A stretch of 5,513 bases of DNA from a virus (Duplodnaviria; Heunggongvirae; Uroviricota; Caudoviricetes). The stretch is taken from IMG/VR virus record IMGVR_UViG_2713896790_000006; one strand, given 5' to 3'. Position 1 is the stretch's first letter, and the number at the start of each line of letters is the position of its first letter. A model generated the notes under the pieces. It saw only the letters and a program-made list of their open reading frames with translations, searched no databases and was not told the origin of the DNA. Shown here piece after piece: positions 1 through 5,513 of the stretch. The position numbers and the translations under genes were made by a program.

Positions 1-481
1 TTTCTTCCTCCGTTGCAATTTCCAGATCTGCAGCATCCTGAAGCGGCGCAATATGCTCACTGGCTACCTGCATCAGGTTGTTTTTTGTTTCTTCCGCCTC
101 CCGGATCCGGAACAGTTTTTCTGCTTCCGTATCCTTCACCCAGGCTGTGCCGTTCCACTTCTGAAACTCCCCTTCCGGCGATAACCAGGTAACATTTTCC
201 GGTAACGGACCGAGTTCAGAAATAAATAACGCGTCGCCGGAAGCCACGTCATAGACGGTTTTTCCCCGATGATCTTCAACGAGATGCCACGATGCCTCAT
301 CACTGTTGAAAACAGCCACGAAGCCTGCCGGAATATCTGGCGGTGCAATATCGGTACTGTTTGCTGGCAGACCTGTATGAGGCGGAATATATGCGTCACC
401 TTCACCAATAAATTCATTAGTTCCGGCCAGCAGATTATAAATTTTTATGGTCTGTGGTTGTTCACTCATTCTGAATGCCAT
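1..481 (-). CDS. tfa: Tail fiber assembly protein Tfa (lambda Tfa-like), partial: start codon in window, 3' end lies beyond the window start
   Basis: Absent from the supplied ORF track (no in-window stop). Manual reverse-complement translation from ATG (complement of 479..481) is open for 160 codons to position 2: [131 protein letters not shown]... This matches the phage lambda Tfa N-terminal region as I recall it. GAGG Shine-Dalgarno (complement of 490..493) lies 8 nt upstream. The ATG overlaps the stf stop by 1 nt (TAATG). Confidence 0.88.
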
Positions 482-3444
482 TATGCAAGCCTCACAATAT
501 AGTTAAATGCGATGTTTTTGACGGTGTTTTCCGCGTTACCAGCAGCGTTAACGGTGATGGTGTGTCCATGTGAACCAATCGCAACGGAGTGCGTATGAGC
601 ACCAATACCGACAGTATGTGCATGTGCGCCTGCGCTTGCAGCAGTGCCGGACAGCGAGTGGGTATGAGCACCATCTGATGATGTCTTCCCTGCATTACGA
701 GTCTGGCCACTACCGCTTGTTGTGCTCATAATCCCCGCGCTTAGATTTGAAATCGCGGTATAACCATTAGGGAAAATGCTCGTGTTCGTGCCACCAAATG
801 CACCGGAACTCTTGTGTTGGTGCGCACCGGCACTATTTGCAGTCCCGCTAATACTATGGGTATGCGCCCCGGTGTTATTCGTGGATTTGGTTCCGTAATC
901 AAACGACGATGTGTTTTTCGTCCCCAAATCCGTACTGGATGCGCTGGCGCTGTGGGTGTGCGATTTAATGCCGTCCTGTTCCTGAGACAATACGGCACGA
1001 CCACTGGCGGGTTTGCCCTTAATCGTCCAGCCACGCATATCAGGGATCACGCCTGACGGATAAGCGGCTGCAAGTTTCGGGTATGCAGATTTGTCAAAAG
1101 TCTGCCCCTGCATCAGGGCATAGCCAGACGGAACGGTATCTGATGGCCACGGGATTGGTGCGCCAGGCGGATAAAACTGCTCTGATGGCGTATAGAGTGA
1201 ATAAACTGTACCGTCCGTTAACCCTTCCGGCTTATTAGCAGAATATGCTGGTGACGTATGAATCGTCACGCTGGCATTACTGGTATAATCCCATTGAATA
1301 TTTACACCAGTCGCATAATTTCCGATTGCAACGTAAATATCGTAAGTATCACCAGATGTATTGACCCAGGCAAAATTTGTAAACCCTGTCGATGTGCGCT
1401 GCCATAAAGCACCAGTAATCCCCTTCGGATTACCATTACCTGCACGCAAAACAAGTTCAGATATACCTGCCTGTTGAGGTGACCCCACGTTAAATCCCGC
1501 GCCACCAATCAACGTAATTGAAACAACAGAACTCGCCTGTGGCATGGTTACCGTTGCTAATTTGAACCAACCAGCACCACCGCTGAATGACATTGTTGTT
1601 GAGTTAAGCGTACCAATATCTTTCGGCGTCAGTGTTATATCCGCTGAAAGCGCCTTACCATTCACCTTACGGGCAGAAGGTACCCGACCATTCGCGTTAT
1701 CATTAGCTGCTTTCACTGCTTTCGGTGTCGCGGCAAGCGTTTCAGATGCGCTGTTGGTTGCACTACTGAGCTGGACAATTCCTTTTTGTGCTGTCGTAGC
1801 GTTCTGAGCAGTATATTTCCCGTTAGCAAGGTCATAGGCTGCCTTTACCGACTTTGGCGTTGCCGCCAGCATTTCAGATGTGCTGTTGGTCGCGTTGCTA
1901 AGCTGAACTATCCCTTTCTGTGCTGTCGTTGCATCCTGTGCGGTGTATTTCCCGTTAGCCAGCTCATACGCGGCCTTAACGGCTTTTGGTGTTGCCGCCA
2001 GTGACTCGGAAGTGCTGTTAGTCGCACTGCTGAGCTGTACTATCCCCTTTTTCGTCGTGCTCGCATCCTCAAGCGCGACGGCGGATGCAATATCCTCTGC
2101 CCGTTTTGCCGCTGTCTCGGCGCGCGTTGCCGCGGATTCCGCCGTACTTTTGCTCTGAGCTGCCGCCGTCGCACTGCCAGCTGCCTCTGTCGCCTTCGTG
2201 GATGCCGTCGTGGCGCTGCCCTTTGCTGCTGACGCCTGTCTGGTCGCCTCATCTTTTGAAGCAGACGCAGATAATGCCGATGACGCCGCCGAACTGGCGG
2301 ACGATGCGGCAGCCGTTTTTGAGGATTCTGCGCTGGTTTCCGACGCTTTCGCGTTCGTCTCGGATGTCTTCGCTGCGGAAGCAGACCTCGCTGCTGCGCT
2401 GGCCTGTACAGCGGCTTCGCCAGCCTTCGTTGTGGCTGTTGAAGCGGACGATGCAGCACTTTCTGCCGATTTTCCGGCGGCGGTGGCACTGGCTGAGGCC
2501 TGCCCGGCATTTGTTGACGCGGCGCTGGCAGATGAGGCAGCCGCTGTTTTTGAGTCTGCTGCTGCGGAGGCACTCTGTGCTGCTGCCGTCTCAGAAGACT
2601 TAGCGTTCGTCTCGGACGTTTTTGCCGCCTTCGCGGAATTTCCTGCCGCTGTTGCCGAGGAGGCTGCACTACTGGCGCTCGAGGCTGCGCTCGTTTCTGA
2701 TGATTTTGCCGCCTCTTTTGAGGCCGCCGCATCCCGGGCTGAGGTGGCAGCTTCTGACGCCTTCGTGGTCGCGGCGGATGCAGAAGTGGCTGCTGATTGT
2801 TGTGACGCTGCCGCATTCGTTTCTGACGTTTTCGCGGCACTGGCACTGGTAGCTGCCGCGCTTTTTGAGGACTCTGCAGCGGCAGCACTTTTTGATGCTT
2901 CAGTAGCCTTTGTTGATGCCGTTCCTGCGCTGGAAGACGCTGACTGAGCCGACGTCGCGGCCTGCCCGGCTGATGTGCTGGCTGCACGTGCTGAGCCTGC
3001 AGCATCAGTCGCATGGGTTGCCGCCTCACGGGCTGATGTGCTGGCATCGCTGGCTGACTTCTTCGCGGCTGCTGTGTTCTGCGCCACTGCGGACGCGTTA
3101 CGCGCCACCTCTTCCACCATCAGTTCAAAACGGCGCAGTGCCTCAGGACGGGCATCATCCTCCGTCATGGCACCGAGAAAATCATTCAGCGTACCGGGTC
3201 GGGAATCTTCATACACGGTGATGGTCCCGGCATGTGACGGCGGGAATCCTTCCACCAACAGAATAACGCTGTACTGACCGTACTCAACGTCCATGCTGTA
3301 ACGCCCGGCCTCATCCGGATTTTCTGAGGCCAGCGTGTTCACCACCACCGTGGTGCTGTTACGTTTTGCTTTCAGCTGGATTGTGCAGTTCTGTACCGGT
3401 TTTCCTGTGCCGTCTTTCAGTACACCTGAAATCTTTACTGCCAT
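481..3444 (-). CDS. stf: Side tail fiber protein Stf (lambda Stf / T4 gp37-like tail fiber), full length, 987 aa from ATG
   Basis: Single uninterrupted minus-strand ORF. N-terminus [26 protein letters not shown]... is the conserved lambda Stf anchor region. Followed by a long Ala/Ser/Thr-rich low-complexity shaft, three tandem ~44-aa repeats ([35 protein letters not shown]), the conserved tail-fiber motif [47 protein letters not shown], and seven HxH His boxes near the C-terminus, ending ...[11 protein letters not shown]. The track starts at a GTG at 3450 (MNM...); I prefer the ATG at 3442..3444, which gives the conserved MAVKISG start with a G-rich SD-like run 5 nt upstream. Stop is TAA (complement of 481..483). 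Confidence 0.93.
1690..2058 (-). repeat. In-frame tandem repeat inside stf: about three copies of a 129-132 bp unit (43-44 aa phage tail-fibre repeat)
   Basis: Translated copies: [43 protein letters not shown] / [44 protein letters not shown] / [37 protein letters not shown] (third copy degenerates). At DNA level the motif tatttcccgttagc recurs at 1814 and 1946, a 132-bp period. Confidence 0.85.
2059..3132 (-). repeat. Low-complexity Ala/Ser/Thr-rich coding region of stf (fiber shaft) with degenerate short repeats
   Basis: Stf residues ~105-462 consist almost entirely of A/S/T/K/E, with recurring AAKTSETNA(K/A)(S/A)SET... units. The GC-rich, codon-biased DNA lacks stops in several frames, which explains the long overlapping track ORFs 2040..3047(-), 2198..2947(+), 2085..2603(+) and others. 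Confidence 0.7.
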
Positions 3445-3453
3445 ATTCACCCC

Positions 3454-3482
3454 ACAAAAAAGCCCGCCTGAACAGGCGGGCT
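3454..3482 (-). terminator. Rho-independent terminator between lom and stf, oriented for minus-strand transcription
   Basis: Perfect GC-rich inverted repeat: 3461..3468 agcccgcc pairs with 3475..3482 ggcgggct, loop tgaaca. On the minus strand it is followed by TTTTTGTGGG (complement of the A-run at 3456..3460). It lies 27 nt downstream of the lom stop and about 10 nt upstream of the stf ATG. Confidence 0.7.
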
Positions 3483-3508: not shown

Positions 3509-3998
3509 TCAGAACTTATAACCGACACCCACGATGNNNNNNNNNNNNNNNNNNNNNNNNNNNNNNNNNNNNNNNNNNNNNNNNNNTGTTGTCAGTTACG
3601 CGGAGATAATCCCCGGAGAAAGTCGACACACGGCTGTAAGCCACACCCGCCATCGCATACGCGCTGAACCATTCATTCACGCGCACAGACGGCCCCACCA
3701 TCACGCTGAACCAGCGGTTACGCACGGAATCTTCATGCCAGCGGGTATCGCTGTAACGGGTAAGCTGGCGATTCTTGTCTCCTGCATAGCTGAATGACGT
3801 CACCAGCCCCAGTGTGTCCGTAAACTCATAACGGTATTTCACGTTAATCCCGTTAAGATCATCGCTGCCGGGAACGTTCGTCGAGGCATGAAGATACCCC
3901 GCGCTCAGCGTGGACTGATGTTCAGATGCCCATGCAGGCGCACCGGATACGGCCAGACAAATGGCTGCGGACAAAATGGCGGCATAAAGTTTACGCAT
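3509..3998 (-). CDS. lom: Lom outer membrane protein (Ail/Lom/OmpX family beta-barrel; lambda lom moron), interrupted by an N-run
   Basis: Translation from ATG (complement of 3996..3998): [137 protein letters not shown], with a signal peptide and AWA/S cleavage site. This matches lambda Lom as I recall it. After the N-run the sequence encodes ...IVGVGYKF-stop (TGA, complement of 3509..3511), a typical outer-membrane-protein C-terminal strand ending in Phe, but in a different frame from the N-terminal part. GAGG SD (complement of 4004..4007) is 5 nt upstream of the ATG. The track ORF 3516..3998 stops at a frame-shifted TAA that is an artefact of the N-run length. Confidence 0.85.
3537..3586. 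other. Run of 50 N (assembly gap or masked segment) inside lom
   Basis: Fifty consecutive ambiguous bases. The lom flanks are out of frame across it, so the run is not length-preserving. Confidence 0.95.
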
Positions 3999-4067: not shown

Positions 4068-5513
4068 TCAACGAATACTGATGCCGGAAGCGGCTTTTTT
4101 GGTCACAATCACCGTACAGTCGGTGATATTACCTGCCCACTGATTGCCTTTATGGAAAACCTTAAACTCCAGAGTGACGCTTCCCCTGCCACTCGGCATA
4201 TCAATAACCGCACTGTAGCTACCGGGAATGGCCCCTTTAGTTTCTCTGGATGCGATTAATACACCGTTTTGGCGAACTTCAAAACCATAACCCGTGTATC
4301 TTGTACCTCCCGGGTTATTACCACTTCCCGGATCGCTATACGCTATTCCGTTAAAGATAATGGGCGGAATAATGATTTGACGGTCAAAGTTATGATCATC
4401 GCTTATGGTGACTGTAACCGTCCCGTTTGGTGTTTCCGTGTTACCCCACGTACCAGCCTGTTTCGGAAATGATTTGGATACAGCTTTAACGAAATCCCCT
4501 CTGACCTGAGTCGCCTCCAGCATGCCCTTAATCGTACAGTTTTCATTTACCGTGACATTGTTGAGCGTCCCGGCGTTCGCATTCACACTGCCACTGATAT
4601 CCGCATTTTTAGCGGTCAGCTTTCCGTCTGATGTCAGGGAAAATACCGGTGGATTTCCACCGCTGGTAATGGTGGGGGCCGTCAGGCGCTTCAGGAACAC
4701 GTCGTTCATGAATATCTGGTTGCCCTGCGCCACAAACATCGGCGTTTCATTCCCGTTTGCCGGATCAATAAACGCGATACGATTGGCGGCAACCAGAAAC
4801 TGGCTCAGTTTGCCTTCCTCTGTATCCTCCATGCTGAGGCCAATACCCGCGACATAATGTTTGCCGTCTTTGGTCTGCTCAATTTTGACGCCCCACATGG
4901 CATTCCACTTATCGTTAGCATCCTTCCACTCTTTCGAAAACTGCTCCAGTCTGCTGGCGTTATCCTCCGTCAGGTCGACTTTTTCCAGCAGCTCTTTACC
5001 GAGATGGGATTCGGTTATCAGGCCTTTGAAAAAATCCAGGTAACCTTCGGCATCATCGCTCGCCCGACCAACAGCCTCCACGAATGCCGATTTGCCAACG
5101 GTGTTCACACTGCGAACGTAAAAATAATAATTATGGCCCGGCCTGATATTGATACTGGCGGCTATCCAGTACAGCGCCGTGCCAAGATAGCGTGCTGTGG
5201 TTTCAACCTGCCTGATATCCGCAATCCGCTTTTCCGAGAACCAGAACTCAAACTGTACCGTCGGGTCATAAACCGCAAGATGCGGCGTGGCGGTTATCTG
5301 AAAATAGCCCGGCGTCAGCTCAATCCGCGACGGCGCTGCCGGTGCGGCAATCCGGAACGATACCGACGCCGGATCGCCCTGCTGCTCCCACGCATTTACT
5401 GCCCGGACTGTCAGCCTGTAGTTCCCCAGAGCCAGTTGTGTGAAGCGGTAAGTGGTTTCCGTCGTCCGGGCCGTGCTGACCAGCCGCTCACTGCCGTCAT
5501 CCGCTGCCACGGT
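4068..5513 (-). CDS. J: Host specificity protein J (central tail fiber / tip attachment protein), C-terminal ~481 codons; 5' end lies beyond the window end
   Basis: Minus-strand frame is open from the window edge to a TGA (complement of 4068..4070). The track's initial M is a GTG at the window edge, not a true start. The translation (...[63 protein letters not shown]...[54 protein letters not shown]...) matches the C-terminal third of lambda J as I recall it. Its position immediately upstream of lom reproduces lambda J-lom-stf-tfa synteny. Confidence 0.9.

Follow-up and report, generated by a model that had tools for sequence, protein, structure and literature searches.

The stf locus and its neighbours

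The window, a 5,513-nucleotide stretch of DNA from the tailed-phage record IMGVR_UViG_2713896790_000006 (Caudoviricetes), carries the side tail fibre gene stf on its minus strand at 481..3450 (stop codon 481-483), as identified from the open reading frame list and by Pfam. The reading frame encodes 989 aa when counted from a GTG at 3450 and 987 aa when counted from an ATG at 3444; the ATG is likely the true start, and the start is annotated there in a near-identical genome. Stf residues are numbered below from the GTG, and 2 has to be subtracted if the ATG is used. The Pfam matches on Stf were phage_tail_N, three copies of Phage_fiber_2, Collar and Phage_fiber, and we conclude that the gene is genuine and intact, with all domains present. 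The N-terminal tail-attachment domain (3043..3444, minus strand, aa 3-136) was matched by PF08400 phage_tail_N at E=1.3e-71; in Ur-lambda, the Stf N-terminus is a collar on the tail (PMC12617516). The shaft holds the Phage_fiber_2 repeats at 1736..2046 on the minus strand (three PF03406 matches, E=1.3e-51), and TRF reported a tandem repeat unit of 132 nt present in 2.4 copies. The Collar domain lies at 1021..1164 on the minus strand (aa 763-810; PF07484, E=6.2e-12, score 45.7 bits where 24 is the cut-off), contains GAPIPWPSD and IPDMRG, and aligns with the collar of the T4 gp37 tip structure (PDB 2XGF).

The tail fibre assembly chaperone gene, tfa (2..481, minus strand; Caudo_TAP, E=2.6e-23), follows directly, and only its first 160 aa fall within the window. 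Its ATG (479-481) overlaps the stf TAA by one base (TAATG). The Tfa protein is 98.8% identical to TfaQ of K-12, 96% identical to Tfa of HK630 and 35.5% identical to T4 gp38 (E=3e-16). The gene order J-lom-stf-tfa, deduced from the open reading frame list and from Pfam Lom and J domains in the neighbouring frames, is that of lambda and agrees with the annotation of a near-identical E. coli locus; a seeming truncation of lom proved to be an artefact of a run of N. That locus, in E. coli LSN03-016011/A, is 99.3% identical and its gene is annotated as a prophage tail fibre; the C-terminal 245 Stf residues are identical in it.

The C-terminal tip of Stf matches the tip of T4 gp37

The first-pass annotation had placed a PIPWP motif and seven HxH boxes between 559 and 1161, and the minus-strand translation, running from APIPWPSD to SHGHT, reads exactly as it was quoted there. 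PIPWP occupies aa 765-769 (1144-1158, minus strand). The boxes, all on the minus strand, are SHTHS (box 1, aa 830-834, 949-963), AHTHS (box 2, aa 862-866, 853-867), AHQHK (box 3, aa 876-880, 811-825), AHTHS (box 4, aa 928-932, 655-669), AHAHT (box 5, aa 942-946, 613-627), AHTHS (box 6, aa 951-955, 586-600) and SHGHT (box 7, aa 960-964, 559-573). The label "GxHxH-type" that had been given to them was apt, with G at position -2 in six of the seven, and the Phage_fiber match (PF03335) falls on box 2. The boxes hold 14 of the 17 histidines of Stf. Shuffling the whole protein 20,000 times never produced seven HxH motifs (mean 0.27), and when only the last 160 aa were shuffled, again 20,000 times, the mean was 1.13 and the maximum 6, so that the HxH count in the tip is far above chance.

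In a phmmer search the last 244 aa of Stf hit 2XGF, the crystal structure of the T4 gp37 tip (gp37 aa 785-1026), with E=1.4e-83 (aa 29-272 of a 272-aa query against chain residues 15-242), and a profile search with the Stf tip retrieved 2XGF at E=3.5e-109; no other solved relative covering the full tip appeared in the structure search by profile. All seven Stf boxes align one to one with seven of gp37: boxes 1-3 pair with AHSHS, GHTHS and EHSHY, and boxes 4-7 with NHSHT, DHSHS, AHTHT and SHGHT. The C-terminal 15 residues of the two proteins are near-identical, and identity is 64% over 242 aa. These alignments bear out the earlier proposal that 559-1161 encodes the C-terminal receptor-binding module of Stf and that its HxH boxes are of the gp37 type. 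Box-by-box alignment to gp37 divides the region beyond the collar, on the minus strand, into an ascending needle arm with boxes 1-3 (811..1020, aa 811-880), a putative receptor-binding head insert of 47 aa (670..810, aa 881-927), and a descending needle arm plus C-terminus with boxes 4-7 (484..669, aa 928-989). Both tips thus share the order collar, needle, head and return needle, and in both phages a chaperone gene lies directly downstream. They differ in the head, which has 32 aa in T4 and 47 aa in Stf, the two being not alignable; in setting, since gp37 is the 1026-aa distal half-fibre of a myovirus whereas the Stf tip is borne by a siphovirus side fibre whose N-terminus is of the lambda type; and in the chaperone, which is gp38 in T4 and a lambda-type Tfa here. 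An AlphaFold2 run on the monomer (alignment of 43 sequences) gave a low-confidence model of a single chain, with mean pLDDT 43.6 and pTM 0.19. A low pLDDT is expected for the monomer because the tip would be an obligate intertwined, metal-bound trimer.

A single hypervariable segment lies between conserved needle arms

We examined variability between the His boxes across a set of 88 distinct homologues of the tip. Hypervariability was confined to the segment between boxes 3 and 4 (aa 881-927), with a mean identity of 0.31 and lengths of 8-51 aa. The segment between boxes 2 and 3 had a mean identity of 0.72 and the remaining four ranged from 0.93 to 0.98, the one between boxes 1 and 2 being at 0.95. 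The descending arm and C-terminus had mean identities of 0.93-0.99. The suggestion that the inter-His segments at large determine specificity therefore stands for the long one that had been quoted, aa 881-927, but not for the other five, which belong to the conserved needle (0.72; 0.93-0.98).

In a wider set of 222 tips, the heads were 11-67 aa long and fell into at least 66 types. For the arm lengths, the head was located by a rule anchored at the C-terminus, since one based on the largest HxH gap misplaces it where SFDYGTK repeats are duplicated. The ascending arm ranged from 57 to 82 aa and the descending arm from 47 to 70 aa; across the 11 length classes, in which tips carried 5-8 HxH boxes, the difference between the two arms was 9-13 aa in 218 of the 222 tips. 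The arms thus co-vary in length, which fits an antiparallel hairpin needle, as such a fold requires this coupling. Together with the single hypervariable insert between boxes 3 and 4, this is indirect, comparative evidence that the needle runs out and back, with the head halfway along the sequence.

The specificity region of gp37 has been assigned to aa 932-965 (PMC9659904), and T4 receptor mutations fall on head residues 938-955 (PMC5221442). Stf aa 881-927 corresponds to this head region of gp37 and is likely the specificity determinant of Stf. Given that the Stf head is 15 aa longer than that of T4 and cannot be aligned with it, the receptor is not deducible from it.

The tip is an exchangeable module that is widespread in E. 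coli

DNA identity to K-12 stfQ, mEp332 and HK630 rises sharply from 35-48% to 90-98% just 5' of GAPIPWP; the exchangeable tip module begins there, at about 1165-1220, just upstream of the Collar domain. Of 5426 complete E. coli genomes, 994 (~18%) carry head DNA at least 95% identical to that in the window, among them K-12, in its Qin prophage, and the same tip is present in the phage records mEp332 and ev099. In K-12 Qin, the head DNA is 100% identical, the tip DNA is 95-100% identical in each 60-nt bin, TfaQ is the close homologue described above, and the chromosomal neighbourhood ydfJ-ynfT-ydfK-pinQ-tfaQ is shared with related strains. The K-12 stfQ is, however, an N-terminally truncated pseudogene adjoining nohA, whereas the window carries a full-length stf with lom and J.

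In related genomes pinQ adjoins tfaQ. A Pin-invertible tip, like the G segment of Mu or the P segment of e14, was considered and rejected, as inverted crossover sites were not found around tfa and the tip; the search turned up just four inverted repeats, which were weak and scattered.

Relationship to other phage tail fibres

The first-pass annotation had also held the PIPWP motif to be common to the distal fibres of lambda, P2, Mu and the T-even phages. This was correct for lambda Stf and T4 gp37, and the motif extends to Stf of Gifsy-2, with Pfam Collar matches in both gp37 and the Gifsy-2 protein, but it did not hold for P2 gpH or for S and S' of Mu. In these proteins Pfam gave no Collar match at E<=0.01, none of PIPWP, PDxRG and HxH was present, and BLASTP against the Stf tip gave no match. 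The similarity of P2 gpH and Mu S to Stf is limited to the Phage_fiber_2 repeat upstream of the tip, where identity between Stf aa 462-545 and P2 gpH aa 168-251 is 80%.

Stf of Ur-lambda is a structural homologue of gp37 that binds OmpC and speeds adsorption (PMC12617516). Compared through the lambda-like phage HK630 as its stand-in, Ur-lambda has the same J-lom-stf-tfa order, the same tip family and, as judged by Pfam alone, the same type of N-terminal domain; the tip DNA of HK630 is 80-100% identical outside the head, and its Tfa is likewise close. Lambda itself has eight HxH boxes rather than seven, a different head, and, relative to the Stf described here, an extra SFDYGTK repeat in the outbound arm and an extra IGAHQHPVV in the inbound arm. 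The Ala/Ser/Thr-rich shaft of the present Stf is ~200 aa longer than that of lambda. The gp37-type tip family, described by Magaziner and Salmond in 2022 (PMC9659904) as a T4- and lambda-based family of enteric receptor-binding proteins, counts over 200 phage members, in which the downstream chaperone is conserved. Our Stf resembles that family, which includes ORF6 of the Citrobacter phage PhiNP, in its conserved distal module of ~215 aa, in divergence limited to the gp37 specificity region, and in the gp38/Tfa-like gene that always lies directly downstream; from PhiNP ORF6 it differs in the head sequence only, and the receptor of PhiNP is Glc-II of LPS (PMC9659904). The characterised relatives of the Stf tip have OmpC or LPS-core sugars as receptors.

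Interpretation of the tip and alternative readings

We are confident, with little reserve, that the region at 559-1161 codes for the distal Stf tip of a lambdoid prophage, a module of the T4 gp37 type with an exchangeable receptor-contact head. By analogy with the solved T4 homologue, three chains would form the collar domain (aa ~760-815), from which each chain would extend along a thin needle (aa 816-880, boxes 1-3), intertwine with the others as a small head (aa 881-927), and then double back down the needle as far as the collar (aa 928-989, boxes 4-7). Six histidines, two from the HxH motif of each chain, would coordinate one metal ion on the threefold axis at every box. According to a passage in PMC11705849 that cites Bartual 2010, the gp37 motifs bind seven iron ions; the putative Stf trimer would accordingly hold seven metal ions if, as in T4, each site is occupied, with iron as the metal by analogy. 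Tfa is homologous to lambda Tfa and T4 gp38 and, judging from this homology and from conserved gene order, would act as a folding and trimerisation chaperone. The head would be the receptor-contact surface and an exchangeable specificity cassette, and the collar and needle a conserved scaffold offering homology for recombinational swapping of tips or heads among unrelated phages. As in Ur-lambda, the fibre may let the phage attach quickly and reversibly to a component of the outer membrane, with binding of J to its own receptor following.

The most serious alternative accepts Stf as described and regards the gene as a non-functional remnant, left in a Qin-like prophage that is decaying, whose product never enters particles. 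Identical tip and head DNA does occur in the defective K-12 Qin prophage, where stf is N-terminally truncated, and in the LSN03-016011/A locus the annotation marks a tail assembly gene upstream as frameshifted. The stf gene here, however, is intact at 987-989 aa with all domains, it is accompanied by tfa, lom and J in the lambda order, the lom truncation is only apparent, and the same tip is found in the mEp332 and ev099 phage records; we therefore regard a relic as unlikely, though it deserves some weight.

The other two alternatives concern the tip itself. A small gene directly after the fibre gene is also the arrangement in T2-type phages, so its product could be an adhesin on the fibre tip, like gp38 of T2- and S16-type phages, taking the place of the Stf head in receptor contact. 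Yet this product is a Caudo_TAP chaperone with 96% identity to HK630 Tfa and 35.5% to the gp38 chaperone of T4, the gp38 adhesin of T2-type phages is an unrelated protein according to the T4 record, and the hypervariability sits in the Stf head, all of which makes a downstream adhesin very improbable. It is harder still to credit a receptor domain of the gp12 short-tail-fibre type, with a collar and a single metal site instead of a gp37-type needle: although 9cuy, a short tail fibre of known structure, was hit by the collar region at E=9.7e-8 (query aa 41-129 of 272), that similarity ends after the collar, and the whole 242-aa tip with all seven boxes matches gp37.

The Stf tip is thus real but ordinary, a close relative of the well-described tip of the T4 long tail fibre. 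The homology of lambdoid Stf tips to gp37, the needle with its metal-binding HxH motifs, the variable head and the conserved downstream chaperone have already been published (PMC9659904, PMC12617516, PMC5221442); the coupled arm lengths and the number of head types are small quantitative additions to the family. A literature search for the receptor, covering stfQ and mEp332, returned nothing relevant. We consider the chances evenly balanced that this 47-aa head recognises an E. coli receptor other than the OmpC or LPS-core glucose of T4 and Ur-lambda. The practical value of the locus is another catalogued head variant for host-range engineering, and if the proposal about the receptor is true, the StfQ-type head would be a widespread, uncharacterised specificity cassette that could be used to retarget lambda- or T4-based particles.

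Gene content and order of the window

The relevant genes are all carried on the minus strand and are arranged as in lambda: the 3' portion of J (4068-5510, identified by Pfam J domains), lom (3516-3998), a 989-aa ORF, stf (481-3450), and a partial ORF for a Caudo_TAP tail fibre assembly protein, tfa (2-481), which runs off the window at base 1. The tfa ATG overlaps the stf stop codon by one base (TAATG), and the encoded Tfa is 98.8% identical to TfaQ of E. coli K-12, 96% identical to Tfa of the lambda-like phage HK630 and 35.5% identical to T4 gp38 (E=3e-16). The lom ORF is interrupted by a run of 50 Ns (3537-3586) that stands for about 160 nt in a 99.3% identical genome; the apparent truncation of Lom to 160 aa is therefore artefactual, caused by masking or a gap, and the homologue is intact at 199 aa. 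The interval separating the lom stop from the stf start carries, directly upstream of stf, a strong terminator-like hairpin, AGCCCGCCTGTTCAGGCGGGCT (3461-3482, minus strand), followed by TTTTTT, the T-run extending to about 3451; two terminator-like sites were observed against 0.1 expected in shuffles.

Judged by its Pfam domains, the 989-aa protein is a lambda-type side tail fibre, Stf: it has phage_tail_N (aa 3-136, E=1.3e-71), three Phage_fiber_2 repeats (window 1736-2046, a 132-nt tandem repeat with 2.4 copies and 79% matches), Collar (aa 763-810, E=6.2e-12) and a 14-residue Phage_fiber repeat (aa 858-871) that coincides with a His box. Residues are numbered from GTG 3450, the mechanical ORF start (MNMAVKISG...); ATG 3444 (MAVKISG...) is the likelier start and matches the 987-aa annotation of a near-identical genome. 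The shaft (aa about 110-460, window about 2070-3120) is Ala/Ser/Thr-rich and of low complexity, with a GC content of 0.57-0.62 versus about 0.48 in the flanks and an AT skew as low as -0.45, and it yields long spurious ORFs in other frames (e.g. 2040-3047 and 2198-2947).

The Stf tip is homologous to that of T4 gp37

Translation of 559-1161 on the minus strand exactly recovered the PIPWP motif and seven HxH boxes quoted in the first-pass annotation. PIPWP occupies aa 765-769, and the boxes begin at aa 830 (SHTHS), 862 (AHTHS), 876 (AHQHK), 928 (AHTHS), 942 (AHAHT), 951 (AHTHS) and 960 (SHGHT). They hold 14 of the 17 histidines of Stf, and seven HxH were reached in none of 20,000 shuffles (shuffles of the whole protein averaged 0.27 and those of the last 160 aa 1.13).

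The proposal that this segment is the C-terminal receptor-binding tip of Stf was borne out by a PDB sequence search, in which the last 272 aa matched nearly the entire crystallised T4 gp37 tip, 2XGF (E=1.4e-83; profile search, E=3.5e-109), in an alignment taking in the collar motif, all seven boxes and the C-terminus. The remaining solved relatives matched far less: 9cuy, a short tail fibre, by its collar only, and the Mu S structure by columns upstream of the tip, none of them in the tip itself. In BLASTP, the tip was 64% identical to T4 gp37 and 56% identical to Gifsy-2 Stf, each over 242 aa, and by tblastn 620 phage records contained the module, those of T4-like myoviruses, lambda-like siphoviruses and Gifsy-2 among them. 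An AlphaFold2 model of the single chain, a monomer, had a pLDDT of 43.6 and was uninformative. In the account of Bartual et al. 2010 given in PMC11705849, each HxH motif of the three gp37 chains contributes to the coordination of one of seven iron ions on the needle axis; the Ur-lambda fibre tip has been described as a structural homologue of gp37 and binds OmpC (PMC12617516).

PIPWP had also been described as common to the distal fibres of lambda, P2, Mu and T-even phages. This holds for T4 gp37 and for lambda and Gifsy-2 Stf, but not for P2 and Mu, as no Collar match, PIPWP, PDxRG or HxH box was found in P2 gpH, Mu S or Mu S'. What the window Stf truly has in common with the P2 gpH and Mu S fibres is the upstream Phage_fiber_2 repeat (Stf aa 462-545 is 80% identical to P2 gpH aa 168-251 over 84 aa). 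The collar was detected by tblastn in some P2-sized Yersinia phages.

Variability is confined to one segment between coupled needle arms

We aligned 88 distinct tips drawn from 115 sequences (the query, protein-search matches, T4 gp37, HK630 Stf, Gifsy-2 Stf and phage mEp332). Relative to the query, identity averaged 0.92 from the collar region to box 1, 0.95 between boxes 1 and 2, 0.72 between boxes 2 and 3, 0.31 between boxes 3 and 4 (aa 881-927), 0.93, 0.98 and 0.97 across the next three intervals, and 0.99 after box 7. Given this low identity and a length range of 8-51 aa, the hypervariable inter-His segment is a single one, the box 3-4 segment, or head, that had been quoted as an example; the others, likewise suggested to be specificity determinants, are scaffold (0.72-0.98). 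Among 222 complete tips there were at least 66 head types, 11-67 aa long. The gp37 counterpart of aa 881-927 is the specificity region at aa 932-965 (PMC9659904), within which T4 mutations altering OmpC or LPS recognition fall, at residues 938-955 (PMC5221442).

Measured from the collar to the final box ahead of the head, the ascending arm of these 222 tips spanned 57-82 aa. The descending arm, which starts at the first box past the head and ends at the C-terminus, spanned 47-70 aa, and the tips formed 11 length classes with 5-8 boxes. The difference between the arms was nevertheless 9-13 aa in 218 tips, and each of the other four had a lost or mutated box. HK630 Stf has an extra SFDYGTK repeat in the ascending arm and an extra IGAHQHPVV unit in the descending one, giving eight boxes, whereas Gifsy-2 Stf lacks matching pieces from both arms and has five. 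Such coupling is a requirement of an out-and-back antiparallel needle, and lends independent support to the predicted hairpin.

The tip and its head behave as exchangeable cassettes

Upstream of about 1165-1220, DNA identity to K-12 stfQ, mEp332 and HK630 was 35-48%, and from GAPIPWP on it rose sharply to 90-100%; in HK630 it fell again across the head only. Phage mEp332 has the same tip (95% identity) but a different shaft. From the identity jump, the drop at the head and the exchanged shaft, we infer that the tip, and the head inside it, behave as exchangeable cassettes, and the mosaic junction at about 1165-1220, just 5' of the GAPIPWP codons, where identity reaches 90-98%, marks the edge of the tip module. 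Recombinational exchange between the His boxes, as first proposed, agrees with this pattern, although it involves one variable cassette rather than several.

The related-genome locus at the Qin site reads ydfJ-ynfT-ydfK-pinQ-tfaQ-stf-lom-J, the stretch beyond window base 1 being L008 5218-6481 and L007 1549-2812. As a Pin-family invertase gene adjoins tfaQ there, an invertible host-range segment was considered, but it was rejected because tfa and the tip are not bordered by inverted crossover sites.

Over its full length, the window shares 99.3% identity with a prophage that occupies this ydfJ-pinQ site in the chromosome of other strains. Of 5426 complete E. coli genomes, 994 carry the head DNA (670-810) at 95% identity or more and 3906 contain at least part of 481-1300 (820 bases). 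The head DNA is 100% identical in K-12, where it lies in the truncated remains of stf in the Qin prophage, adjoining tfaQ, pinQ and nohA. In many database 'proteins' the tip is fused to domains of terminase, portal or Lom (P0006, P0030-P0034, P0082, P0097, P0108); these may reflect decayed or rearranged prophages, or gene-calling across junctions, and nohA beside the stf remnant in K-12 Qin offers a parallel.

Proposed role in adsorption

The original observation is correct and the module was already known, a family with a variable region and a conserved downstream chaperone having been described in 2022 (PMC9659904). Receptors of characterised relatives are OmpC (T4, Ur-lambda) and LPS-core sugars (T4, PhiNP; PMC9659904). 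Gifsy-1 Stf, a possible further relative, recognises core Gal II (PMC12312913). Building on the directly established homology, motif alignment, variability pattern, coupled arms and gene context, we propose as most likely a mechanism in which the trimer, the metal and the chaperone and adsorption roles are drawn from homologues. Stf would assemble as a trimeric side fibre, and Tfa would help its tip fold into a collar, a metal-stapled needle with seven axial sites and, distally, the head. This head would bind an outer-membrane component reversibly, and this binding would speed J-dependent irreversible adsorption.
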